64,000 nucleotides of DNA from Myxococcota bacterium (GCA_041687695.1 JAWLBL010000002.1:294761-358760), one strand, 5' to 3'; shown: positions 50,548-61,904, numbered from the stretch's first letter. Notes: generated by a model from the sequence alone, not told the origin. Numbers and translations are program-made.

Positions 50548-52017
50548 TCACCCGGCGCGCGGCCGCTGGGCGGCGTAGCGGCCGACCAGCTCGACCAGCT
50601 CCTGCACGGCGACCGGCTTCTTCAGGACCCCGGCCAGGCGGCGCGGGTCGGTCTTGCGGGCGATGTTGGGGTCGGCGGTGATGACGGCGACCGGGATCTC
50701 GGCCAGCTGGTCGTTCTGGCGCAGCTCGCTCAGCAGCGCGCCGCCGTCCACCCGGGGCATCCACCAGTCGGTCAGGATGAGGGCCGGCCGCGGCTCTCGG
50801 TACAGCCACGCCAAGGCGGGCGCGCCGTCGTCGACCGCGACCGCGTGGAACCGCTCGTCGGTCAGGACCTCGAGCAGCTGCTGGCGCACGTCGGGATCGT
50901 CCTCGACGATCAGCACGACGTCGCTGCAGGCGCCGCCCAGGGCGTGGCCGATGACGCCGTGGCGCTGCGAGGGCTGGCGCCGGCGCGCCGCGTCGACCCG
51001 GGCCCGGGGGGCCGTCGCGCAGGGGCGAGGCGCGGCGACGGCGAGCCGCGAGCCGCCGAGGTCCCAGGGCGCGGTGGTCTGCAGCGCGCGCGGGCGGGTC
51101 GCGGCCAGGGCTCCGAGCCCGGACGGGCGGGGGCGAGGGTCGGGCGGTGAGATCGCCTCGGGGCGGGCCATCCGGACGAGGCCGCGTCGCACCTCGCGCA
51201 GGGCGCGGGCGTAGCTGCGGGCGCTGCCGGGGCGGGCGTCGGGCTGGGGAGACAGGGCCGCGTGGACCGCTTGCGCGAGGCCGCTGGGCAGCGGGGGCAG
51301 GCCGGGCGGCGGCAGGGGCGCGCTGGGGTGACGCTGGGTGCGCTCGAGCAGCGCGGCCAGGGTGTCGGTGTCGAAGGGGAGGGCGCCGGCGACCAGCTCG
51401 TGGAACAGCAGGGTCGCCGAGTACAGGTCGGAGCGCGCGTCGAGCGGCCCGCCGAAGAGCTGCTCGGGCGAGGCGTAGGCGGGGGTCCCGACGAACGAGC
51501 CGACGCGCGTCAGGCCGGGCCCCTCGTCGTCGATGGCCTTGGCGATGCCGAAGTCGAGCAGCTTGGGGCGTGGCTGGCCGGTCGCCGAGGGCACCAGCAG
51601 GACGTTGCCCGGCTTGAGGTCGCGATGCAGGACCGCCTGCGCGTGGATGGCGTCGAGCCCGTCGAGGATGCCTACCAGGATGTCGAGCGCCTCGGCCCAG
51701 GGCACCGCGCCGGTCGCGGCCAGGCGCTCGTCGAGCAGCTGGCCGTCGACGTGCTCCATCGCGATGCACGGCCGACCGTCGCCCAGCAGCCCGTAGTCCA
51801 GTAGAGCCACGACGTTCGGGTGACGCACCCGCGCCATCAGCTCGGCCTCGCGCTCGAAGCGCGCGGCGGTCTGGGGCCGCACCTGATGGAGGACCTTCAG
51901 CGCGACGCGGTGGCCGAGCCGCGCGTGGCGCGCGCGATAGACCCGGCCCATCCCCCCCTCACCGATGAGCCCTTCGACCTCGTAGCGTCCCAGGACGGTC
52001 TCGCCCGGCTGCAGCAT
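50548..52017 (-). CDS. Hanks-type Ser/Thr kinase fused to a C-terminal receiver domain
   Basis: GEGGMGRVY, VALK, HRDLKPGN, DFG, GTPAYASPEQ; REC VEDD...TDWWMP..DG...ITA...KP. Confidence 0.92.
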   Translation of the reverse strand: MLQPGETVLGRYEVEGLIGEGGMGRVYRARHARLGHRVALKVLHQVRPQTAARFEREAELMARVRHPNVVALLDYGLLGDGRPCIAMEHVDGQLLDERLAATGAVPWAEALDILVGILDGLDAIHAQAVLHRDLKPGNVLLVPSATGQPRPKLLDFGIAKAIDDEGPGLTRVGSFVGTPAYASPEQLFGGPLDARSDLYSATLLFHELVAGALPFDTDTLAALLERTQRHPSAPLPPPGLPPLPSGLAQAVHAALSPQPDARPGSARSYARALREVRRGLVRMARPEAISPPDPRPRPSGLGALAATRPRALQTTAPWDLGGSRLAVAAPRPCATAPRARVDAARRRQPSQRHGVIGHALGGACSDVVLIVEDDPDVRQQLLEVLTDERFHAVAVDDGAPALAWLYREPRPALILTDWWMPRVDGGALLSELRQNDQLAEIPVAVITADPNIARKTDPRRLAGVLKKPVAVQELVELVGRYAAQRPRAG

Positions 52018-52124
52018 GTGTGCCGCCCTCGTCCAAATGCCTGCCTGAATGGAAGCGCCCCGCGCGCTTGGAGGCAGCGCCGCGCGCCGGCCGCCGAAGC
52101 GCTGGGGAACACCGCTCGAAGCGT

Positions 52125-52140
52125 CGTCACGTTCGTGACG
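52125..52140. promoter_or_regulatory. Perfect palindrome upstream of the kinase gene (candidate operator)
   Basis: CGTCACG-TT-CGTGACG. Confidence 0.35.
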
Positions 52141-52242
52141 GGCCGAGCCTCCGACGGTTCGCCCCCGGCGGGCAACGTCCCGGGCGTAACCGTGGCGGAG
52201 GCCCGACGACGTCACCCGCACCCGGGGCGTCGTCCCTGGACG

Positions 52243-53319
52243 TCAGCGCGGCGGCGGCGCTACGACGCCACCGGCCTGCGTGGCCGCCAGGGTGCCGCAG
52301 GCGGCGCCGATCTCCTTGCCACCCGAGTAGCGGCGGGCGACGGGCGCAGGCAGCAGCTCGCGCAGGTGATCGCGGAAGCGGGCCAGCTCCTCCGGGCCCG
52401 GCGGCAGGTAGCGGCCGGTCGGGTCGGTGACGTCGATGAGGTCGAGCTTGATGGGCACGCCCTCGAAGGCGCGGGCGAGGGCCTCGGCGTCGTCGCGGCC
52501 GGTGTTGAAGCCGGCGATGAGGACGTAGGCCAGCATGACCCGCTGGCGGCGCGCGGCGGCGTGCTCGCGGACGGCGTCGACCAGCGTCGGCAGCGGGTGG
52601 GTGCGCTCGACGGGCAGGAGGCGGCCGCGCTTTTCGGGGATCGCCGAGGTCAGCGAGACGACGAGGCGATAGGGCTGCCCCTCGCGCGTGTAGCGGCGCA
52701 TGGCGGGGACCACGCCGACGGTCGACACGCTGATGGCCTTGGCGCCGATGGCGGGGCCGGCGGGGTCGCGCAGGATCTCGGCGGCGCGCATGACCTCGGC
52801 GTAGTTGAGCAGGGGCTCGCCCATGCCCATGAAGACGACGCCGCGGACGGGGATCGGGCTCTCGGCGCGGACCCGCAGCACCTGATCGACGATCTCCCAG
52901 GTGCGCAGGTTCCGCGAGAAGCCCAGGTGACCGGTGGCGCAGAAGTCGCAGCCCATCGCGCAGCCGACCTGCGACGAGACGCAGACGACCGCCTTGTCGC
53001 CCAGGATGGGGATGCGCACCGCCTCGAAGCGGCCGCCCAGGGGCGAGGCGAACAGGTACTTGACGAAGCCGTCGGCGGCGACGCGGCGCTCGACCACCTC
53101 GAGCTCGGGCAGAGTCGAGCGGCGCAGGAGCGCCAGCACGGGCGAGGGGACCTGCGGGGTGGCCAGGACCTCGTCGAGCGTGCGGGCGCCGTGGGCGAAG
53201 ACGCTGGCGAACAGCTTGCGGACGCCGATGGGCGGCGGCGAGAACGGCGCGAGCCGGGCCTCGAGCTCGGCGAAGGAGAGGTCCTTGAGGTTCAGGCCGT
53301 CGGGGTCGGGGGCGTGCAT
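52243..53319 (-). CDS. RlmN/Cfr-family radical SAM RNA methyltransferase (divergent paralog)
   Basis: DG.VKYLF, CVSSQVGCAMGCDFC, MGMGEP, STVG, C-terminal GAACG.L. Confidence 0.88.
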   Translation of the reverse strand: MHAPDPDGLNLKDLSFAELEARLAPFSPPPIGVRKLFASVFAHGARTLDEVLATPQVPSPVLALLRRSTLPELEVVERRVAADGFVKYLFASPLGGRFEAVRIPILGDKAVVCVSSQVGCAMGCDFCATGHLGFSRNLRTWEIVDQVLRVRAESPIPVRGVVFMGMGEPLLNYAEVMRAAEILRDPAGPAIGAKAISVSTVGVVPAMRRYTREGQPYRLVVSLTSAIPEKRGRLLPVERTHPLPTLVDAVREHAAARRQRVMLAYVLIAGFNTGRDDAEALARAFEGVPIKLDLIDVTDPTGRYLPPGPEELARFRDHLRELLPAPVARRYSGGKEIGAACGTLAATQAGGVVAPPPR

Positions 53320-53448
53320 CGGGGCGGACTGTAACCGGGTTGAGCGCCCGCGGGCAGCTGGGATCGTCAGGCCGCCCGATCCGGTGACCGGGCGGGCGGA
53401 CCGCGGTACGGTCGGGGCGAGCATCAACGAGCGGCGTGCGAGGTCGGC

Positions 53449-54423
53449 GTGAGCTGGCGAGACGAGCAGGCGGGCGAGCGGTCGGGCGGGCTGCGCGTCG
53501 GGGTGACCGGGGCGACCGGGGTCATCGGGCGGGCGCTGGTGGCGTTCCTCAAGAGCCACGGGCACCACGTGCAGCGGCTGGTGCGGCGGCCGAGCGCGGG
53601 CGGAACGGAGGACGTGTTCTGGGATCCCGCGCGCGGCGAGATCGACGCGCCGGCGCTCGAGGGGTTCGACGCCTTCGTGCACCTGGCGGGGGCCAACGTC
53701 GGCGAAGGGCGGTGGACCGAGGCGCGCAAGGCCGAGATCCTGGGCAGCCGGCGCGACGGGACGCGGCTGCTGGCGCGGACGCTGGCGGGGCTCGAGCGGC
53801 GGCCGAGGGTGCTGGTGTCGGCGTCCGGGGTCGGCGTGTACGGCGACCGCGGCGACGAGGTGCTCGACGAGGACAGCGCGCCGGGGCGGGGCTTCCTGGC
53901 CGAGGTGTGCAAGGTCTGGGAGGCCGAGACCGAGGCGGCGGCGCAGGCTGGGATACGAGTGGTGCGGACGCGCATGGGGGTGGTGCTGGCGCCCGAGGGC
54001 GGCGCGCTGGCGCGCATGGTGACGCCGGTGAAGCTGGGTGTGGGCGGGCGGCTGGGGTCGGGGCGGCAGTACATGAGCTGGGTCGCGCTGGACGACGTGC
54101 TGGGCGCGATGCTGTTCGCGCTGACCCGCGAGACGCTGAGCGGGCCGGTGAACGTGGTCGCGCCCAACCCGGTGACCAACGCCGCCTTCGTCCGGACGCT
54201 GGCGGGGCTCCTGCATCGGCCGGCGATCCTGCCGGTGCCGGCGGCGGCGCTGAAGCTGGCGGTCGGCCCCGAGATGGCCGAGGAGCTGGTGCTGGCCAGC
54301 CAGCGTGTCGTGCCGCGGCGCCTCGAGGCGGCTGGCTTCCGCTTCGCGCATCCGCACCTCGAGGTCGCGCTGGCGAGGGCGCTCGGGATGCACGCGCCGG
54401 AGCCCGGATCGGCCTGGGCGTGA
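53449..54423 (+). CDS. TIGR01777 (YfcH-like) NAD-dependent epimerase family protein
   Basis: TGATGVIG, HLAG, GFLA.VC..WE, GGRLGSG.Q.MSW, GPVN..AP, LASQRV.P.RL...GF.F. Confidence 0.92.
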   Translation: MSWRDEQAGERSGGLRVGVTGATGVIGRALVAFLKSHGHHVQRLVRRPSAGGTEDVFWDPARGEIDAPALEGFDAFVHLAGANVGEGRWTEARKAEILGSRRDGTRLLARTLAGLERRPRVLVSASGVGVYGDRGDEVLDEDSAPGRGFLAEVCKVWEAETEAAAQAGIRVVRTRMGVVLAPEGGALARMVTPVKLGVGGRLGSGRQYMSWVALDDVLGAMLFALTRETLSGPVNVVAPNPVTNAAFVRTLAGLLHRPAILPVPAAALKLAVGPEMAEELVLASQRVVPRRLEAAGFRFAHPHLEVALARALGMHAPEPGSAWA

Positions 54424-54480
54424 CCCGGGCGTGACGGTCTCGCTTGTCACGGCCGCGCGCGCCTTCTACCGTGCCCGGCC

Positions 54481-56142
54481 ATGAGCAAGCGCACGCTATT
54501 GGTGATGGGGCTGGTCGGCGCGATGGGCGCCGGCTGTGGGGACACGGGCGAGACGCCGCCGGCGGACACCGCCGTGACGGACGTGGCCGACGTCGGCAAG
54601 GGCGACGCTGCGGACGACGCCGAGCCGGACACCGCCGAGCCGGACGCCGCGGGCGACGTGGACGTCACGCCGGCGCCCGCGTTGCAGGCCGTCGAGGGCG
54701 AGCCCAACTTCGCGGTCGCCGCCGCCGGCTGGTACCGCGGCGACTTCCACTACCACACCAACTACAGCGGTGACGCCAAGGAGCAGGGCGGCGACGATCT
54801 GGCGGTGGCCATCGCCATCGCCGACGCCTACCGCGACCCGGTCTTCCTGGCGGCCAACCCGGACAAGGCGGGCAACGGCCTGGACTTCGTCGCCATCACG
54901 GACCACCGCACCGACGCGGCCTTCGCCGACCCGGACTTCACCCACGACCACCTCATCCTGGTCCCCGGCGAGGAGTACGGCGGCGGCGGACACGCCATCA
55001 TCGCCGGCCTCGACCACCACATCCCGCACGACGCGGCGGCCGGTCAGGCCCAGGACGCGCGCCACCTCGAGGCGATGGCCGAGGCGCACGCCCAGGGGGC
55101 CTTCTTCAGCATCAACCACCCGTGCCAGGAGAACATGTGGAACTGGTCGGTGGACCTGGTCGACGCCATCGAGCTCTGGAACGGGCCGTGGGCCTCGTTC
55201 TACACCGGCGCGTCCCCCGAGCACGTCGAGGCCGAGGCGGCCGGCGCCGGCTTCATGAACCCCTTCCTGCCCGACGCGATCGCCAACGGCGGGACGGGTC
55301 ACAACGACAAGGCGATGCGGTACTGGCAGAACATGCTGACCGCCGGCCTGCACGTCGCACCCATCGGCGGCAGCGACCGCCACATGATCGTCCCGGCCGC
55401 CCTGCCGACCACCTACGTGCGCCGCCCGGCGAACCCGGCCTTCGAGGGCCTCGAGGGGCCGGCCCTGGGCTCCGACGGCATCGTCGCGGGGGTGCGTGAG
55501 GGCGGGACGTTCGTGTCGCGCTCGCCCTTCGGGGCGCAGATCGAGCTGACGGCGGTCAGCGCCGACGGGCAGGTCTTCCCGATGGGCGCCGAGCTGCCCG
55601 GCGCCGGCACCTACACGGTGCAGATGCGCGTCGGGCGCGCCGAGGGCGGCCGCCTGCGCCTGCTCAGCGGGCCGCTGAAGGCGCCGGTCGACGGGCACGT
55701 CAGCGCCGACGTGGCCGTGGTCTTCGACGAACCCATCCCCTCCGACCTCGCCAAAGGCGAGTTCACCTGGGAGGTCCCCGCCGAGGGCGCCTGGCTGCAC
55801 GCGGTCGTCCTCGAGGACCTGACGCCCGACCCGCTGCCGGAGGCCGTCCAGGAGGCGCTCGCCCACTTCCAGGTGGCCAGCGAGGGCAACGCCCTGGTGG
55901 TCATGGCCGGCGCCCTGGCGCCCCTGCTCGACATCAACATCCTGCTCGACCCCACCCTGTGCGATCCCGCGGCCTGGGACCCCTGGATGGGCCAGTGCAT
56001 GCCGGTCGATCAAGGCACCCTGGCGACCTTCTACCTGCCCGATCGCATCGAGCGCCTCGTGCAGATCGTCTTCGAGGACGGCGCCGCGACCGACTGGGCC
56101 ATGGGCGCCATCAGCTCGGCCTTCCTGGCGCGTCCCCAGTAG
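54481..56142 (+). CDS. PHP-domain (CehA/McbA-like) metallohydrolase lipoprotein
   Basis: Lipobox GAGC; GDFHYHT, ITDH, NHP, IELWNG, GGSD.H. Confidence 0.85.
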   Translation: MSKRTLLVMGLVGAMGAGCGDTGETPPADTAVTDVADVGKGDAADDAEPDTAEPDAAGDVDVTPAPALQAVEGEPNFAVAAAGWYRGDFHYHTNYSGDAKEQGGDDLAVAIAIADAYRDPVFLAANPDKAGNGLDFVAITDHRTDAAFADPDFTHDHLILVPGEEYGGGGHAIIAGLDHHIPHDAAAGQAQDARHLEAMAEAHAQGAFFSINHPCQENMWNWSVDLVDAIELWNGPWASFYTGASPEHVEAEAAGAGFMNPFLPDAIANGGTGHNDKAMRYWQNMLTAGLHVAPIGGSDRHMIVPAALPTTYVRRPANPAFEGLEGPALGSDGIVAGVREGGTFVSRSPFGAQIELTAVSADGQVFPMGAELPGAGTYTVQMRVGRAEGGRLRLLSGPLKAPVDGHVSADVAVVFDEPIPSDLAKGEFTWEVPAEGAWLHAVVLEDLTPDPLPEAVQEALAHFQVASEGNALVVMAGALAPLLDINILLDPTLCDPAAWDPWMGQCMPVDQGTLATFYLPDRIERLVQIVFEDGAATDWAMGAISSAFLARPQ

Positions 56143-56177
56143 CGGCCAGGCGGGCGGCGCTGGGCTATCCTGACCCC

Positions 56178-58133
56178 ATGCCGCCCGCCGCCCCCGTCCC
56201 CGCGCCGGCCGATCCCGCCGCGCTCCTCGCCGCCCTGGGCTCCCGCCCGCGCGTGGTCCTGGTCGGCGACGTGGGCAGCGGCAAGTCGACCCTCTCCGCC
56301 GCCCTCGCCGACGCCCTGGCCGCCTCCGGCGCCCCGGCGACCGGGATCTGCGCCGACCCCGGCCAGCCCGCCTTCGGCCCGCCCGGCGCCGCCTCCCTCG
56401 CCGCCCGCCGCGGCGGCGCCTGGCACCTCACCGCCCTCGAAGGCCTCGCCACCCTCGACGCCGGCCGCTACCGCCTCCCGCTGATCGAGGCCGTCCGCCG
56501 CCTGGCCGCCGCCACCGACGACCAGCCCCTGGTCCTCGACGCCCCCGGCGTCGCCCGCGGCGCCCCGGCCGCCGAGCTGCTCCCCGCCCTGGTCGGTGCC
56601 GCCGGCGCCACCCACGTCCTCGCCCTCACCCAGGACGACGCCCCGCTCCCGGTCGCCGCCGAGCTCCTCGCCACCCCGGCCACCGTCCTGCACGTCCGCG
56701 CCGCCGCCGCCGCCGCCCCCCGGCCCCCCGCCGACCGCGTCACCTTCCGCACCGCCGCCTGGGACGCCTGGCTCACGGGCGCCCGTCCGCTCGCCCTGCC
56801 GCGCCTCGCCTTCGTCCTCGCCGGCCGCCCCGCCCTCGGCGACCCCGCCGCCTGGCCCGGCCGCCAGGTCGCCCTCCTCGACGCCTCCGGCGCCACGCTG
56901 ACCCTCGCCCAGGTCGTCTCCCTCGCCCCCTCGCACCTCCACCTCCTCTCGCCTCCGGTCGACCCCGCCCGCGTCGCCGTCGTCCTCGTCCGCGACGCCG
57001 GCCGCGCCCCCGACGCCACGCTCGCGACCCGGCCCTGGCCCTCCCCGCGCCCGCCCCGCCCGCCCCCGCCGCGCCCCGGCGCCCGCCCCGACCTGCGCCT
57101 CGACCTCGGCCCGCCCCCCGCCGACCGCGTCACCCGCTTCGCCCCGGCCTTCCTCGGCGGCCTGTGGGACGACCCGACCCTGCACCTGCGCCACGACCTC
57201 GCGCGCCGCGGCGTCCTGTTCGACCTGGGCGATCTGGGCGCCCTGCCGGCCAAGCTGGTCCACCAGCTCTCCGACGTCTTCGTCACCCACGCCCACATGG
57301 ACCACTTCTCGGGCATGCTCGCGCTGCTCCGCCGCCGCCTCGGCGCCACCGCCCCCTGCCGCCTGTACGGCCCTCCCGGCCTCGCCGCCCGCGTCGCCGC
57401 CGCCATCGCCGCCTTCACCTGGGACCGCATCGGCGACGACGGCCCGCGCTTCCACGTCGCCGAGCTGCACGACGCCACCTTGCGCTGGACCGCCCTGCAG
57501 CCCGGCCGGCCCGCGGCCCCGCTCCCCGACACCCCGGCCCCCGCCGGCCAGCTCCTCGCCGACCGCGACCTCACCGTCCGCGCCGCGCCCCTCGACCACG
57601 CCGGCCTGCCCGTCCTCGCCTTCGCCCTGCGCGAGCGCGACCGCCACCTCGTCCGCCCCGACCGCCTCGCCGCCGCCCCGCACGCCCCCGGGCCCTGGGT
57701 CGGCGCCCTGGTGGCCGCCATGGACGCCGGCGCCGCCGACACCCTCATCCGCCTGCCCGACGGCGCCTCCGCCCCGGCCGCCCGCCTCGCCGCCGACCTC
57801 CTCACCCGCGAGCCGGGCCAGACCGTCGCCTACGCCACCGACCTCGGCGACACCCCGAGCAACCGCGCCGCCCTCATCGCCCTCGCCCGCGGCGCCGATC
57901 TGCTGGTCTGCGAGGCGTCCTTCGCCCAGGCCGACGCCCCCCGCGCCGCCCGCACCGGCCACCTGACCGCCCGCGCCTGCGGCGAGATCGCCGCCGCCGC
58001 CGCCGTCCGCCGCCTCGCCCCCTTCCACCCCTCGCACCGCTACGAGGCCGACCCCGCGCCCCTGTACGCCGAGGTGCGCGCCGCCTTCTCCAACGCCCTC
58101 GCTCCGACCGGCCTCGACCTCACCGCGCGCTGA
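56178..58133 (+). CDS. Clp1-type polynucleotide kinase / RNase Z-like metallo-beta-lactamase fusion
   Basis: GDVGSGKST, DPGQ..FGPP, VLDAPG, RVTFR; then FDLG, THAHMDH, LYGP, DH, GPW, YATD, CEASF, GHLT, FHPS.RY. Confidence 0.85.
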   Translation: MPPAAPVPAPADPAALLAALGSRPRVVLVGDVGSGKSTLSAALADALAASGAPATGICADPGQPAFGPPGAASLAARRGGAWHLTALEGLATLDAGRYRLPLIEAVRRLAAATDDQPLVLDAPGVARGAPAAELLPALVGAAGATHVLALTQDDAPLPVAAELLATPATVLHVRAAAAAAPRPPADRVTFRTAAWDAWLTGARPLALPRLAFVLAGRPALGDPAAWPGRQVALLDASGATLTLAQVVSLAPSHLHLLSPPVDPARVAVVLVRDAGRAPDATLATRPWPSPRPPRPPPPRPGARPDLRLDLGPPPADRVTRFAPAFLGGLWDDPTLHLRHDLARRGVLFDLGDLGALPAKLVHQLSDVFVTHAHMDHFSGMLALLRRRLGATAPCRLYGPPGLAARVAAAIAAFTWDRIGDDGPRFHVAELHDATLRWTALQPGRPAAPLPDTPAPAGQLLADRDLTVRAAPLDHAGLPVLAFALRERDRHLVRPDRLAAAPHAPGPWVGALVAAMDAGAADTLIRLPDGASAPAARLAADLLTREPGQTVAYATDLGDTPSNRAALIALARGADLLVCEASFAQADAPRAARTGHLTARACGEIAAAAAVRRLAPFHPSHRYEADPAPLYAEVRAAFSNALAPTGLDLTAR

Positions 58134-59292
58134 CCTCGGGCGCGGCCCGCCAGCGCAGCGTGTCGCCGACCCGCTCCAGCGGCGTCTCGAACCGCGCCCG
58201 CGACCCCTGCGCCAGCGGGTCCAGGATGGCGTCCGCCTCGGCCCCCGTCGCCAGCGCAGGCGCGCCGCCGGGCCGTCGCGTCAGCAGCGGGTGGACCACC
58301 AGCGCCTCGGCCCGCCACCCCGCCGCGCCCGGCGCGCGCGCCAGCGTCAGTTCGAAGGCGGCGCCGCGCCGTCCGTCGATCCGCACCATGTCGAACACCA
58401 GGTTGCCCATGTTGTACAGGATGATCCCGTCGCCCCAGGCCTCGACCGGCTGCAGCACGTGCGCGTGGTGGCCCAGCACGGCCGTCGCCCCTGCGTCCAC
58501 CAGGGCCCGCGCCAGCTGCTGCTGCCTCCGGTTGGGCCACGCCGTGAACTCGCCGCCCCAGTGCAGGGTCACCAGCACGACCTCCGCGCCGCCCTCCCGC
58601 AGCGCCCGCACCCGCGCCGGCAGGACCTCCAGCATCTCGCTCGTCGTCAGGAACGCCACCGGCACCGACTGCCCCGGCTTGGGCGTCCCGCGGTTGCGGC
58701 GCGTCGTGGCCGCCAGCACCGCGACCCGGACGCCGGACACGTCCAGCACCAGCGGCGCCAGCGGATCGCCCCCGACCGACGCCCCTACCGCCCCGACGCC
58801 GGCCCCCTCCAGGGCCAGCAGCGTCTCGGCCAGCCCCGCCTCGCCGCAGTCCTCGGCATGGTTGTTGGCCAGCACGGCCACGTCCACGCCCGCGTCCGCC
58901 AGGGCCCCCGCGTAGCGCGTGGGCGCCCGAAAGCGCAGGTGCCGCAGCGGCAGCTTCCGCGCCCGCACCAGCTCGTCGGGATCCACGTCCGACAGCGGCG
59001 TCTCCAGGTTCACCAGGGCCAGGTCGGCGGCGCGGGTCACCGGCGCGAGCTGCTCGAACGGGCGGTCGCCTCCGCTCGGGACCAGCGTGCGAAAGACGTA
59101 CCGTCCGAACATGACGTCACCGCCGGCCACCACCCGCAGCCGCGCCGCACCCGCCTCGGTCGGGACCCGCTCGCGCCCGCGCTCGACCGCCGGGGGGCGC
59201 CGCATCGGCGTCGGCACCTCGGGGAGGCTGGCGCACGCCGCGGCCATCGAGACCCCCAGCCACGCGATCACGCTCGTCCACGCCGCCCTCAT
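58120..59292 (-). CDS. CapA/PgsA-like metallophosphoesterase lipoprotein
   Basis: Lipobox AAAC; GGDVM.GR, NLETP, ANNH..D.G, LHWG, GHHAHV, YNMGN. Confidence 0.9.
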   Translation of the reverse strand: MRAAWTSVIAWLGVSMAAACASLPEVPTPMRRPPAVERGRERVPTEAGAARLRVVAGGDVMFGRYVFRTLVPSGGDRPFEQLAPVTRAADLALVNLETPLSDVDPDELVRARKLPLRHLRFRAPTRYAGALADAGVDVAVLANNHAEDCGEAGLAETLLALEGAGVGAVGASVGGDPLAPLVLDVSGVRVAVLAATTRRNRGTPKPGQSVPVAFLTTSEMLEVLPARVRALREGGAEVVLVTLHWGGEFTAWPNRRQQQLARALVDAGATAVLGHHAHVLQPVEAWGDGIILYNMGNLVFDMVRIDGRRGAAFELTLARAPGAAGWRAEALVVHPLLTRRPGGAPALATGAEADAILDPLAQGSRARFETPLERVGDTLRWRAAPEVSAR

Positions 59293-59475
59293 GGCGCGCA
59301 GCATAGGGCTGCGGCGCGCGCCGTACAGAAAGCCGCCGTCCCGCGCGCCCGTCGCCGCTTGCGGCCTCAGGATGGGCGGCGCCCCCTCGCGCGTTGAAGC
59401 TGTAACCGCCGTGAGTCGCTCGCGCCGCGTGGCCGGCGAGCCTGGCACTTCGTGTTGCGATGCGGGAGGCCCACC

Positions 59476-59670
59476 GTGAAACATTCCGCGTTGTCCGACC
59501 CCGAGGTGCCTCCTATCCTCGCGCCATTTCGCACAGGCCCCACGGCCGGACGGGCGGCCCTCGGCCGCTCGAGCCCTCGCCTGCCCCTGGCGCCGCCAGC
59601 GCATCGGGGCCCCGGGTCGCCCCCTGACCTCCTCAGTCGACCGCTCGACGGGTCCGCCTATCCCGAATGA
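59476..59670 (+). CDS. Putative small Pro-rich protein (64 aa) coupled to the downstream kinase
   Basis: GGGAGG 6 nt before GTG; the stop overlaps the kinase ATG (ATGA); codon bias is weak. Confidence 0.35.
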   Translation: MKHSALSDPEVPPILAPFRTGPTAGRAALGRSSPRLPLAPPAHRGPGSPPDLLSRPLDGSAYPE

Positions 59671-61904
59671 CGCCTCGTCCCCTCCGCCTGGTGCAGCGCC
59701 TCGCCCCCCGCTTCGCGGCGCTCCTCGTGCTCGTCCTCGGGCTGTCGTCGACGCTCGCCGCCTGGATGTACGTGTCCGAGAACGAACAGGCGCGCGCCAA
59801 CCGCCGCTTCTACGACGCGGTCGAGCAGGTCACCCAGACCATCGAGCACCGCCTGGCCGCCTACATCTCCGTGCTGCTGGCGACCCGCGGGTTCCTCGAC
59901 GCCAGCGAGACCATCACGCGCGACGAGTTCCAGACTTTCATCCAGAGCGTCGAGGTCGGCACGCGCTTCCCCGGCGTGCAGGGGCTGGGGTTCGCGGCCT
60001 GGATCTCCGAGGACGAGCGCCCGGCCTTCGAGGCCCGCCTCCGCGCGCAGGGCCTGCCCGACTACCGGGTCTGGCCCGAAGGCCCCCGTGCGCGCTACGC
60101 GCCCATCGCCTTCATCGAGCCGCAGGACTGGCGCAACCGCCGCGCCATGGGCTTCGACATGTACTCCGACCCGGTGCGACGCGACGCCATGGATCGCGCC
60201 CGCGAGCACGCGCTGCCGGCCGCCACCGCCCAGGTCCGCCTCGTCCAGGAGACCGACGTCGAGCCCCAGGCGGGCTTCCTCATCTACGTGCCGGTCTACA
60301 CCCGCGCGGCGACCGACGTGGGCGAGCCCAGCGACCAGCGGCTGCGCGGGTTCGTCTATGCCCCCTTCCGCACCGGCGATCTCTTCGGGACGCTGCTCGG
60401 CCCCGCGGCCGCCCGCGCCGTCTCGCTGGCCATCTATGACGGGTCCCCGCACGAGGGGCAGCCCCCGCTCTTCATCAACGGCACGCAGCCCGAAACGGGC
60501 TCGCCCGTCCTCACCGCCACGCGGCACCTCGACGTCGCCGGCCGTCGCTGGACCCTGGTCTTCCGCAGCACCGAGCGGCTCACCGATCTGGGCAGCGACC
60601 TCCCCCTCTGGGTCGCCCTGGGCGGCGTCCTCATCAGCTTGCTCCTGTTCGTCATCACCCGCGCGCAGGTGCGCGCCCGCGCCGCCGCCGAGGAGTCCGA
60701 CCGCCGCTCCGCGCTGCTCGCCGAGGTGGCCGGCGTGCTGTCCAGCTCGCTCGACGGCACCGAGATGCTCACCGGCGCCGCCGCCCTCGTCAGCCTGGGG
60801 ACGGACGCCGCCTGCGCCGTCGAGCTGCTCGAACCGGACGGCGCGGTGCGCTCGTTCCTGGCCGTCCCCGGGCCCGATGAGCCGCGGATCGAGACCCGAC
60901 GCCGGCCGGGTCACCCCGAGCACATCGGCCTCGACCGCGCCATCACCGCCGACCGCTCACGGATGCTGGCGCACACCGATCCGGCCCTCGATCGCCTGCT
61001 GCCCGAGGACTTCCTAGCCCTGCTCGGGGCCGCCGCGCGCTCGGCCGTGCTCGTCCCGCTCCGCGCCCGGGGCCGCGCCATCGGCTCACTGAGCCTCGTC
61101 TGGACCGCGCCCCGCCGCCGCCAGCTCCCCGCCGACCTGGCCACCGCCCAGGACCTCGGCCGCCTCATCGCGGCCGCCGCCGACAACGCGCAGCTCTACC
61201 GCGACGCCCAGGACGCCATCCGCGTGCGGGACGAGTTCCTGTCGGTCGCCTCCCACGAGCTCAAGACGCCGCTGACCTCGCTGCAGCTGCAGGTCCAGAG
61301 CATCTTGCGCGCCCTCGAGCGCGGCCGCGCCGCCGCCCTGACCCCCGACGCCCTGCGCGACAAGGCCGGCCTCATCGACAGCAGCGTCCAGCGCATGAGC
61401 AACCTCATCTCGAGCCTGCTCGACATCGCGCGCATCACCTCGGGTCGCCTCGTCCTGTCGCCGGCCGACACCGATCTCAGCGCCCTGGCCCGCGACGTGT
61501 GCGCGCGCTTCTCCGACGAGGCGCGCGCGGCCGACGTGCCGCTGGTCGCGTCCATCGAGGACGGCGTCGTCGGGCGTTGGGACGCGCAGCGCCTGGACCA
61601 GATCGTCTCGAACCTGCTGTCCAACGCCATCAAGTACGGGCCGGGGCAGCCGGTCGACGTCACGCTCGAGCGGCGCGGCGACGTGGCGCGGCTCGAGGTG
61701 CGCGACCGCGGCATCGGCGTGCCCCCCGAGGACCAGGCGCGCATCTTCGACCAGTTCGAGCGCGCCGTCTCGACCCGCAACTACGGCGGCTTCGGCCTGG
61801 GGCTGTGGATCTCGCGGCAGATCGTCGAGGCCCACGGCGGCAGCATCGCCGTCACCAGCGAGCCCGGTCAGGGCGCGACGTTTACGGTGACGCTGCCGCT
61901 GTGA
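59667..61904 (+). CDS. CHASE-GAF sensor histidine kinase
   Basis: TM-CHASE (PGVQGLGF, IEP...RN.RAMGFDM, GFVYAPF)-TM; GAF (VPL.ARG..IG.L); FLSVASHELKTPL, NAIKY, GFGLGL. Confidence 0.93.
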   Translation: MTPRPLRLVQRLAPRFAALLVLVLGLSSTLAAWMYVSENEQARANRRFYDAVEQVTQTIEHRLAAYISVLLATRGFLDASETITRDEFQTFIQSVEVGTRFPGVQGLGFAAWISEDERPAFEARLRAQGLPDYRVWPEGPRARYAPIAFIEPQDWRNRRAMGFDMYSDPVRRDAMDRAREHALPAATAQVRLVQETDVEPQAGFLIYVPVYTRAATDVGEPSDQRLRGFVYAPFRTGDLFGTLLGPAAARAVSLAIYDGSPHEGQPPLFINGTQPETGSPVLTATRHLDVAGRRWTLVFRSTERLTDLGSDLPLWVALGGVLISLLLFVITRAQVRARAAAEESDRRSALLAEVAGVLSSSLDGTEMLTGAAALVSLGTDAACAVELLEPDGAVRSFLAVPGPDEPRIETRRRPGHPEHIGLDRAITADRSRMLAHTDPALDRLLPEDFLALLGAAARSAVLVPLRARGRAIGSLSLVWTAPRRRQLPADLATAQDLGRLIAAAADNAQLYRDAQDAIRVRDEFLSVASHELKTPLTSLQLQVQSILRALERGRAAALTPDALRDKAGLIDSSVQRMSNLISSLLDIARITSGRLVLSPADTDLSALARDVCARFSDEARAADVPLVASIEDGVVGRWDAQRLDQIVSNLLSNAIKYGPGQPVDVTLERRGDVARLEVRDRGIGVPPEDQARIFDQFERAVSTRNYGGFGLGLWISRQIVEAHGGSIAVTSEPGQGATFTVTLPL

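Follow-up and report, generated by a model that had tools for sequence, protein, structure and literature searches.

A Clp1 kinase–RNase Z-like fusion protein in a Myxococcota genome as a candidate RNA end-healing enzyme

The DNA considered here, referred to as the window, is a stretch of 64,000 nucleotides from Myxococcota bacterium (GCA_041687695.1 JAWLBL010000002.1:294761-358760). On its plus strand lies a gene (56178..58133, stop codon included) for a single protein of 651 amino acids, the Clp1 kinase–RNase Z fusion. A Clp1-type P-loop polynucleotide kinase domain (residues 30-198; 56265..56771) and a Clp1 C-terminal-like beta domain (residues 201-280; 56778..57017) make up its N-half. They are followed by a Pro/Arg-rich linker (residues 284-322; 57027..57143) and by an RNase Z-like metallo-beta-lactamase (MBL) nuclease domain (residues 321-644; 57138..58109), all on the same strand. 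The original prediction, made from the DNA alone, described this gene as one uninterrupted reading frame joining a Clp1-type kinase to an RNase Z-like nuclease, and proposed that it mends both ends of damaged RNA. Its description of the gene is borne out below; its functional proposals have fared unevenly.

The frame translates without a stop, and GC content at third codon positions (GC3), which is the best coding signal in a window of 74% GC, is 0.98 across the gene. In successive 300-nt blocks GC3 is 0.98-1.00, with 0.82 in the last block, which takes in the stop codon and the bases beyond it. Upstream of the ATG at 56178 the frame is open back to a GTG at 55959, and GC3 over these 219 nt (55959-56177) is only 0.56, which makes the ATG the probable start codon; the N-termini of homologues line up with it. 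The junction between the two halves falls inside the single frame, on a contig of about 383 kb. Gene GC content (81%) is above that of the genome (73%), and the gene therefore bears no mark of recent arrival. A scan of 54200-59800 gave no promoter-like sites and a single terminator-like one (59432), which is distant from the gene, although such a scan is uninformative in DNA of 74% GC.

An AlphaFold2 model of the protein, built from 55 homologues, has a mean predicted local distance difference test (pLDDT) score of 91.6 and comprises two confident halves. Only residues 1-3 and 290-302 have low confidence. The latter lie in the linker (pLDDT < 50), which differs in length and sequence between homologues. 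Foldseek finds relatives of both halves with a probability of 1.00. Its top matches are Bacillus subtilis RNase Z with bound tRNA (2fk6; E value 2.4e-19, target template modelling score 0.78), Escherichia coli ZiPD and ELAC1; on the kinase side they are human CLP1 in the TSEN complex, Caenorhabditis elegans Clp1 and Grc3.

Pfam, predicted fold and motifs all place the N-half in the Clp1 family, and kinase activity is predicted for it. The Pfam model CLP1_P (PF16575) matches residues 30-198 with an E value of 1.7e-11 and 44.7 bits, against a cut-off of 26.6. The motifs listed in the original prediction, here as in the C-half, are all found where it placed them. They include the Walker A sequence GDVGSGKST (residues 30-38; 56265..56291), ADPGQ with the putative 5'-OH-activating Asp60 (residues 59-63; 56352..56366), LDAPG (residues 120-124) and RVTFR (residues 187-191). 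Asp60 sits 24 residues past the Walker lysine, K36. A profile alignment places positions 6-60 on residues 117-171 of the C. elegans Clp1 chain, and Asp60 is presumably the equivalent of the catalytic Asp151 (Walker B) of C. elegans and human Clp1. In an alignment of 27 fused N-halves, G33, G35, K36, D60, D121, R187, R191, and W195 are invariant. R187 and R191, the candidate lid arginines, are also invariant across the 55 homologues used to assess conservation, which are 40-51% identical to the fusion.

Structural comparison with VIA-align extends this assignment beyond the kinase domain. Residues 7-280 of the model align with residues 81-423 of C. elegans Clp1 (Z 26.9; for chain 4ohy_A, model residues 9-280 against 83-423, with a root-mean-square deviation (rmsd) of 2.9 over 264 residues) and with residues 87-422 of human CLP1 (8hmy_E; Z 26.9). 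The aligned region covers the kinase and C-terminal domains of Clp1; the eukaryotic N-terminal domain is not part of the fusion. Assignment of the beta domain rests on this fold match and on the invariance of R272 and D273. Grc3 from the Las1-Grc3 complex also resembles the N-half (8puw_B, Z 22.8; 6of2_B, Z 20.6), and when the N-half profile was compared with sequences in the PDB, Grc3 (8e-8) and Clp1 (7e-7) were the best single-domain matches. RecA concatemers and midasin outranked both in that search. These are multi-copy P-loop proteins, and the Pfam and fold comparisons are preferred.

The C-half is, by profile and predicted fold, RNase Z-like. This name is used rather than RNase Z equivalog because curated score cut-offs, given below, were not reached. 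Pfam Lactamase_B_2 matches residues 360-617 (E value 4.2e-16), and among NCBIfam models the fusion scores best with NF002558, a 'ribonuclease Z' subfamily (residues 321-643, 262.4 bits). Two unfused relatives, L029 and L030, clear the cut-off of that model, with 384 and 447 bits. Among PDB sequences, phmmer retrieves E. coli RNase Z (2cbn; 1.2e-11) and also B. subtilis RNase Z. In VIA-align comparisons, residues 321-644 match residues 1-297 of B. subtilis RNase Z with Z scores of 28.1 (1y44), 28.0 (2fk6), and 27.9 (4gcw) and an rmsd of 2.1-2.4, with 281 of 307 residues aligned in the tRNA-bound chain 2fk6_A versus 244 in the 269-residue chain 1y44_A. Other RNase Z structures give Z scores of 26.6 (2cbn), 23.8 (3zwf), and 20.7 (7xgt).

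The motifs of the C-half comprise the metal-binding HAHMDH (residues 371-376; 57288..57305), LDH (472-474), ATD (553-555), CEA (578-580), GHLT (594-597), and FHPSHRY (616-622). Between His474 of motif III and Asp555 of motif IV lies a flexible arm, the predicted tRNA exosite, at about residues 486-545 (57633..57812), with the sequence PGPW at 504-507. The model shows helix and strand elements at residues 489-541, and phmmer places this stretch on the arm region of E. coli RNase Z. Canonical RNase Z has a PxKxRN loop near motif I; ahead of motif I in the fusion (GDP...FDLG), where the family consensus up to FDLG includes FGDPLLHLRLRH, no PxKxRN was seen by eye.

Conservation across the 55 homologues points to selection on both halves. 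In the N-half, G30, G33, D60, P61, D121, P123, R187, R191, W195, R272, and D273 are invariant, and K36 is at least 90% conserved. In the C-half, the ligands of the complete two-metal site (H371, H373, D375, H376, H474, D555, and H617) are all present and invariant, as are E579, H595, S619, and R621. Within the arm, P527 is invariant, and G505, W507, and L511 are at least 90% conserved. Given these invariant catalytic residues and the conserved arm, both active sites and the predicted tRNA-binding arm are under selection. Profile, predicted fold, and catalytic-residue conservation thus agree with the two domain assignments originally made, including when the halves were checked in the AlphaFold2 model.

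The fusion is genuine and has a patchy distribution. Both PF16575 and PF12706 occur in 62 of 67 homologue clusters (E <= 0.001), which settles the earlier concern that the gene might be an assembly artefact. In their source records the homologues are labelled 'MBL fold metallo-hydrolase', 'Clp1/GlmU family protein', or 'ribonuclease Z/BN'. The ESM Atlas holds several two-domain clusters of 50-83 members each. With the N-half only as query, 1.84 billion representatives yielded 354 matches at 1e-3, 137 at 1e-10, and 52 at 1e-30. Among the best 150 of these matches, 56 are at least 580 amino acids long; several shorter ones break off within the linker or soon after the C-half begins and appear to be fragments, and weaker matches of about 280-320 amino acids resemble stand-alone Clp1 proteins.

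Sampling of species gives a similar picture. In the class that holds Halomonas, 400 sampled species yielded 35 matches at 1e-20, comprising 14 full-length fusions, 14 unfused relatives of the C-half, and seven others (contig-end pieces, weaker matches to frames of about 300 amino acids, and the unpublished genome G341, which none of the counts relies on). Among 300 sampled species of the window's own phylum, full-length matches were found in three (G636, G682, and G522), and in a further genome (G670) residues 25-487 matched inside a 775-aa frame; none of these belongs to the window's class or order. The fusion is absent from 40 closer relatives (17 of the same order and 23 of the same class), which gave weak partial matches at most. 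No match to the fusion was found in 50,697 phage records; among 72,556 plasmid records, six match the C-half alone and none has the fusion.

The fusion also appears to be old and monophyletic. The order of kinase then nuclease is constant, and the fused proteins form one clade. A quick maximum likelihood tree (LG+G4) was built from 82 C-halves, comprising 38 fused sequences (every second row of the homologue alignment plus 10 loci), 40 unfused sequences, and four distant MBL outgroups with long branches. All 38 fused C-halves fall on one side of a branch with a Shimodaira–Hasegawa-like approximate likelihood ratio test (SH-aLRT) value of 96, and the 40 unfused C-halves fall apart from them, so that a single change of state between fused and unfused suffices. 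The window's copy is in a basal group whose branching is poorly resolved, together with P0038, P0046, P0065, and a 7.5-Mb 'delta proteobacterium' metagenome-assembled genome. One genome (G044, which holds locus L020) apparently has two fused copies (C347:1258-2175 and C21:31011-31931), one of them with a TAG inside the match.

Gene neighbourhoods were compared across 27 distinct fused loci (the window, 14, and 13 more; L119 duplicates L016) and 29 unfused loci (L018 among them being truncated by a contig end), followed by 13 further unfused loci. The loci were found by an alignment-based search, a single-protein query having given no relatives. They are of unequal length (2-22 kb), and the genes in them are open reading frames (ORFs) picked by the authors. 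RtcB is present at none of the 27 fused loci and at four of the 29 unfused ones (L030, L033, L036, and L049), with none in the further 13. Archease accompanies RtcB in all four, as detected by tblastn in L030, L036, and L049 and by Pfam in L033. The difference in RtcB between fused and unfused loci is suggestive; it is not significant (Fisher p = 0.11).

Other RNA-related genes are scattered. LigT occurs at one unfused locus (L033, directly upstream) and at no fused locus. In one fused locus (L120), an RtcA gene precedes the fusion by 35 nt on the same strand; RtcA is found at two unfused loci as well (L031 and L137). An NYN RNase gene is directly upstream on the same strand in one fused locus (L117), and an MJ1316 'RNA cyclic group end recognition' ORF is adjacent in two (L014 and L126); neither is at any of the 29 unfused loci, and neither was seen in the further 13. 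The RNA-end context of the family is thus weak yet recurrent.

A separate Clp1 gene accompanies the unfused RNase Z-like gene at two loci. In L143, a gene for a 312-aa Clp1 protein (CLP1_P, E value 1e-31) ends 80 nt 5' of a gene for a 351-aa RNase Z-like protein, on the same strand and in the order seen in the fusion; in L032, they converge. Such stand-alone Clp1 proteins resemble the fused N-half only remotely (28-33% identity over 51-108 residues), and the pairs are therefore independent pairings rather than recent splits.

In the window itself, the fusion gene is flanked by genes of other kinds. A CehA/McbA-family metallohydrolase (54481..56142, plus strand; NF038032, 116 bits against a cut-off of 80) ends 35 nt 5' of it. 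This neighbour was considered as a partner and dropped, as it has no tblastn match in loci L013-L055 and the pairing is not conserved. On the other side, a PGA_cap gene of the CapA-like metallophosphoesterase fold (58120..59604, minus strand; Pfam E value 1e-58) is convergent with the fusion and overlaps its 3' end by 14 nt. Its product has a lipoprotein-like N-terminal signal. It, too, was dropped as a partner, being 29% identical to the recurrent subfamily described next and apparently exported; it may or may not have a functional link to the fusion.

That PGA_cap subfamily, whose members are 50-68% identical to the copy in L029, recurs in distant lineages beside or close to fused genes (L020:4909-6132, L023:7825-9063, and L114:820-1938) and unfused ones (L029:11020-12168, L031:11111-12316, L051:8742-9713, and L042:3-422). 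In L029 and L031 it follows the RNase Z-like gene by 12-91 nt on the same strand. The copies in L020 and L023 have signals like those for twin-arginine translocation, and those in L029 and L031 have none. PGA_cap occurs at only three places in the genome that holds the window.

Farther upstream, an RlmN-like radical S-adenosylmethionine (SAM) methyltransferase gene (52243-54450, minus strand) matches NF011040 with 489 bits against 441, over residues 388-728 of a 735-aa frame. Its first 387 codons overlap a plus-strand ORF (53344-54423) of higher GC3 (0.94 vs 0.88), and its start may be mis-called. At 50548-52221 (minus strand), a Ser/Thr protein kinase domain is joined to a C-terminal response-regulator receiver domain.

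Three more gene types recur around members of the family. A DUF6763 protein of about 100 amino acids, with no PADLOC match, lies beside fused genes in three distinct loci (L016:3346-3654, which is the same locus as L119; L014:4879-5259; and L122:2193-2486) and, in three others, no more than a few kb from an unfused RNase Z-like gene (L036:7207-7437, L137:1308-1604, and L140:8307-8603). A radical SAM enzyme of the AmmeMemoRadiSam system (TIGR04337, 346 bits in L017) is near one fused gene (L017:6238-7257) and three unfused ones (L032:7978-9159, L033:5647-6738, and L144:3912-4823). At four loci, a protein with a weakly APH-like kinase N-terminal part and an AAA_33 P-loop kinase C-terminal part is encoded 0.3-2 kb from unfused RNase Z-like genes (L030:12634-14277, L047:3640-5238, L035:13113-14180, and L036:8564-9655). 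The forms in L035 and L036 are shorter and have no Pfam hit, and two of the four loci also have RtcB.

Potential partners were also sought genome-wide. In the genome that holds the window, RtcB occurs at three places, distributed over contigs C23 and C39; RtcA adjoins one of those on C39, and the fusion is on C2. As originally reported, then, there is no RNA ligase near the fusion, and its nearest genes are unrelated. The same genome lacks a PF09414 RNA ligase, a second CLP1_P gene over the cut-off, and any gene over the TIGR02651 RNase Z cut-off, the best match to the last being the fusion itself (94.5 bits). Other RNase Z-like MBL genes lie at C5:309491-309934 and C6:249389-250030. By a crude tail test, 27 of 60 tRNA genes predicted by aragorn have no encoded CCA, and some predictions of odd length may be false. 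Among five fusion-bearing genomes, a canonical RNase Z exceeds the TIGR02651 cut-off in one, and in four the fusion outscores every other RNase Z-like gene. A complete Halomonas genome has the fusion and no RtcB.

Clp1-family enzymes transfer the gamma-phosphate of ATP to the 5'-OH of polynucleotides. RNase Z dimers grip tRNA by the arm and cut after the discriminator base, leaving a 3'-OH. RtcB, for its part, requires a 5'-OH end. Together with the domain content, these properties suggest that the fusion could be a bifunctional enzyme of the cytoplasm that heals the ends of tRNA-shaped RNA, a reading given a probability of about one in two. The arm of the C-half would bind tRNA or tRNA-like RNA, probably as a dimer in the manner of RNase Z. 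The C-half would then generate an unblocked 3'-OH. It could do so by clipping away an abnormal 3' tail or, like ELAC1 and rice TMS5, by taking off a 2',3'-cyclic phosphate. The N-half, with ATP, would convert the 5'-OH into a 5'-phosphate. In combination, the 5'-OH and cyclic phosphate ends left by metal-independent RNases and ribotoxins would become 5'-phosphate and 3'-OH ends. The healed RNA might afterwards have its CCA re-added, be sealed by an ATP-dependent ligase where one is present, or decay.

Both activities have precedents. Ts-Clp1 of Thermus scotoductus is reported to phosphorylate single-stranded RNA (PMC6777427). The short RNase Z enzymes TMS5 and ELAC1 are described as removing 2',3'-cyclic phosphate from CCA-less tRNAs (PMC11897441). 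This removal lets CCA be re-added (PMC11897441; 10.1101/2021.08.05.455008; 10.64898/2026.10.07.757187). The original proposal that the fusion fixes both 'dirty' ends is made plausible by this cyclic-phosphatase activity of short RNase Z enzymes (PMC11897441), by the neighbours linked to cyclic ends, which occur at low frequency, and by the RtcB-archease genes of the sister clade. More broadly, the family is widespread in bacteria, and probably cleans up damaged RNA ends.

Several observations weigh against this end-healing reading. Both curated RNase Z cut-offs are missed (TIGR02651, 94.5 vs 292.95; NF002558, 262.4 vs 315), and the small-molecule PhnP-family diphosphatase 6b9v shares the RNase Z fold, with a Z score of 19.3 to the model. 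The predicted template modelling (pTM) score of 0.62 and the low-confidence linker imply no fixed geometry between the two active sites. Around the fusion in the window lie genes for a PHP-type hydrolase, the PGA_cap lipoprotein, the RlmN-like enzyme, and signalling kinases, the last being the Ser/Thr kinase-receiver fusion and a CHASE histidine kinase, and no RNA-repair gene is among the fusion's nearest neighbours there. Most of the 27 fused loci likewise have unrelated housekeeping neighbours, the RNA-related ones being single cases (RtcA one, NYN one, MJ1316 two). RtcB is found in three of five fusion-bearing genomes; of another five, partly the same genomes, one has a PF09414 ligase over the cut-off and two have RtcA. 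Since each of these occurs in only some fusion genomes, the fusion has no obligate ligase partner.

These results bear most directly on the idea, part of the original prediction, that the fusion heals ends for sealing as Pnkp does. With no PF09414 ligase in this genome and one such ligase over the cut-off in five fusion genomes, and with RtcB needing the very 5'-OH that the kinase would remove and being found at none of the fused loci, healing for ligation is weakened as an explanation here. A role in predation or toxin resistance finds no support. Against PADLOC-DB 2.0 the fusion gives only a P-loop match to TRIP13 (E value 2e-4, residues 22-49) and its neighbours none, no phage record matches it, and no plasmid record carries it.

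Much of the same evidence could be read differently. If the fusion performed the same end chemistry in order to license decay, fragments produced by toxins or ribozymes would be made degradable by RNases that sense a 5'-monophosphate and by 3' exonucleases, and their re-joining by RtcB would be blocked. Destruction by the kinase of the 5'-OH that RtcB needs is in keeping with this, as are the distribution of RtcB (0/27 fused loci vs 4/29 unfused), the presence in this genome of RtcB and RtcA with no PF09414 ligase, and the solitary position of the fusion gene at most loci. However, the RtcB contrast is not significant, the 13 additional unfused loci also have no RtcB, the conserved tRNA-binding arm suggests a specific structured substrate rather than bulk fragments, and RtcA, a maker of ligatable cyclic ends, is the operon partner in L120. 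Decay licensing is therefore an unlikely explanation, if one to be taken seriously. A narrower form of the end-healing reading starts from the fact that the 5' and 3' ends of tRNA adjoin in the acceptor stem, so that an RNase Z dimer seated on the tRNA elbow could offer both ends of one tRNA to the tethered active sites. The 3' end would be trimmed or de-cyclised for CCA re-addition and the 5'-OH re-phosphorylated, and the fused branch of the PRK02126-type clade would have left RtcB-archease for an RtcB-independent route. Such dedicated acceptor-stem repair is a speculative and rather doubtful specialisation. Alternatively, the C-half could be the cell's ordinary tRNA 3'-trailer endonuclease, with the kinase as an accessory or regulatory appendage. 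The fusion is, after all, the top RNase Z-like match in four of five fusion genomes, only one of which reaches the TIGR02651 cut-off, and the 27 of 60 predicted tRNA genes without an encoded CCA call for some 3' endo- or exonuclease route and CCA addition. Absence of the gene from the 40 genomes of the same order or class, and from most of the phylum sample, is too patchy a pattern for an essential maturation enzyme, however; other RNase Z-like MBL genes are available on C5 and C6, and the invariant catalytic residues of the kinase indicate that the N-half has been selected as an enzyme. A housekeeping role is accordingly improbable.

Two remaining explanations depart further from end healing. 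The resemblance of the N-half to Grc3 (Z 22.8 and 20.6) recalls the coupling of nuclease and kinase that is established in the processing of eukaryotic internal transcribed spacer 2 (ITS2), and the fusion might similarly cut a precursor RNA and phosphorylate the new 5' end for a 5'-3' exonuclease. This is very unlikely, as MBL RNases, including RNase Z, generally yield 5'-phosphate and 3'-OH ends, so that the product of the fusion's own nuclease would need no kinase, and Las1 is a HEPN nuclease unrelated to the C-half. It is harder still to credit that the fusion does not act on RNA at all, the C-half being a PhnP-like or cyclic-nucleotide phosphodiesterase joined to a small-molecule kinase, perhaps working with the PGA_cap neighbour. 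Weak NCBIfam matches of the fusion to a cyclic nucleotide-degrading phosphodiesterase (50 bits) and to PhnP, the likeness of the model to the PhnP-family diphosphatase (Z 19.3) and to yeast PDE1 (Z 19.5 by VIA-align), and the recurrence of the PGA_cap subfamily near fused and unfused relatives would all fit. The RNase Z matches are nevertheless far stronger (Z 28) and extend to the arm, a feature absent from small-molecule enzymes. To our knowledge, every characterised Clp1-family kinase acts on polynucleotides. In addition, the unfused sister clade is found in RtcB-archease-LigT operons, and several PGA_cap neighbours have export signals and may thus sit in another compartment.

Bacterial RNA repair is known mainly through RtcB/RtcA and Pnkp/Hen1. 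No published account of a Clp1-RNase Z architecture was found in a search of titles and the beginnings of abstracts, outside which the likeliest source, Burroughs and Aravind (2016), falls. The available text of Saito et al. (2019; PMC6777427) makes no mention of RNase Z, of a lactamase, or of any fusion. If the end-healing reading is correct, prokaryotic Clp1 kinases, to which the available text of PMC6777427 assigns no physiological role, would gain one, and the newly reported tRNA cyclic-phosphatase role of short RNase Z would extend from eukaryotes to bacteria.

Among known systems, the C-half is closest to the short-form RNase Z enzymes, represented by those of B. subtilis and E. coli (RNase BN/ZiPD), human ELAC1, and rice TMS5/RNase ZS1. 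It shares their fold, the HxHxDH, His, Asp, and His ligands, a C-terminal motif of the HxSxRY type, and the Gly-Pro flexible arm between motifs III and IV. Unlike them, the fusion bears a whole N-terminal Clp1 kinase and scores far below the curated cut-offs, and its C-halves form a separate clade in a PRK02126-like side branch. With Clp1, Grc3, and Nol9, and with the stand-alone Ts-Clp1 (PMC6777427), the N-half shares CLP1_P, the kinase and C-terminal fold, Walker A, and two Asp motifs, and it has two candidate lid arginines. In contrast to eukaryotic Clp1, it has no N-terminal domain, the alignment beginning at Clp1 residue 81-87, and a nuclease is attached to it.

The coupling of a Clp1-family kinase to an RNA endonuclease is a feature shared with Las1-Grc3 (8puw, 6of2, and 7y18 among the matches). 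There, however, the nuclease is of the HEPN type and leaves a 5'-OH, the coupling is by complex formation, and the system is eukaryotic, whereas the MBL half of the fusion is expected to leave a 5'-phosphate. The predicted logic is instead that of bacterial Pnkp, which acts with Hen1, and of phage T4 Pnkp, in which one chain mends a 5'-OH and a blocked 3' end. Pnkp proteins combine a T4-type P-loop kinase with a calcineurin-type or DxD phosphatase. The fusion differs in pairing a Clp1-type kinase with a metallo-beta-lactamase 3' module, and has no ligase domain and no Hen1 at its locus; TIGR04075, the bacterial Pnkp family, is not among the best 25 of the 30 NCBIfam families that match it (E <= 1). 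It would thus be an analogue, not a homologue, of the Pnkp end-healing enzymes and, if the proposed function holds, a third design of end healing, built in a single chain from different folds, a Clp1 kinase and an RNase Z.

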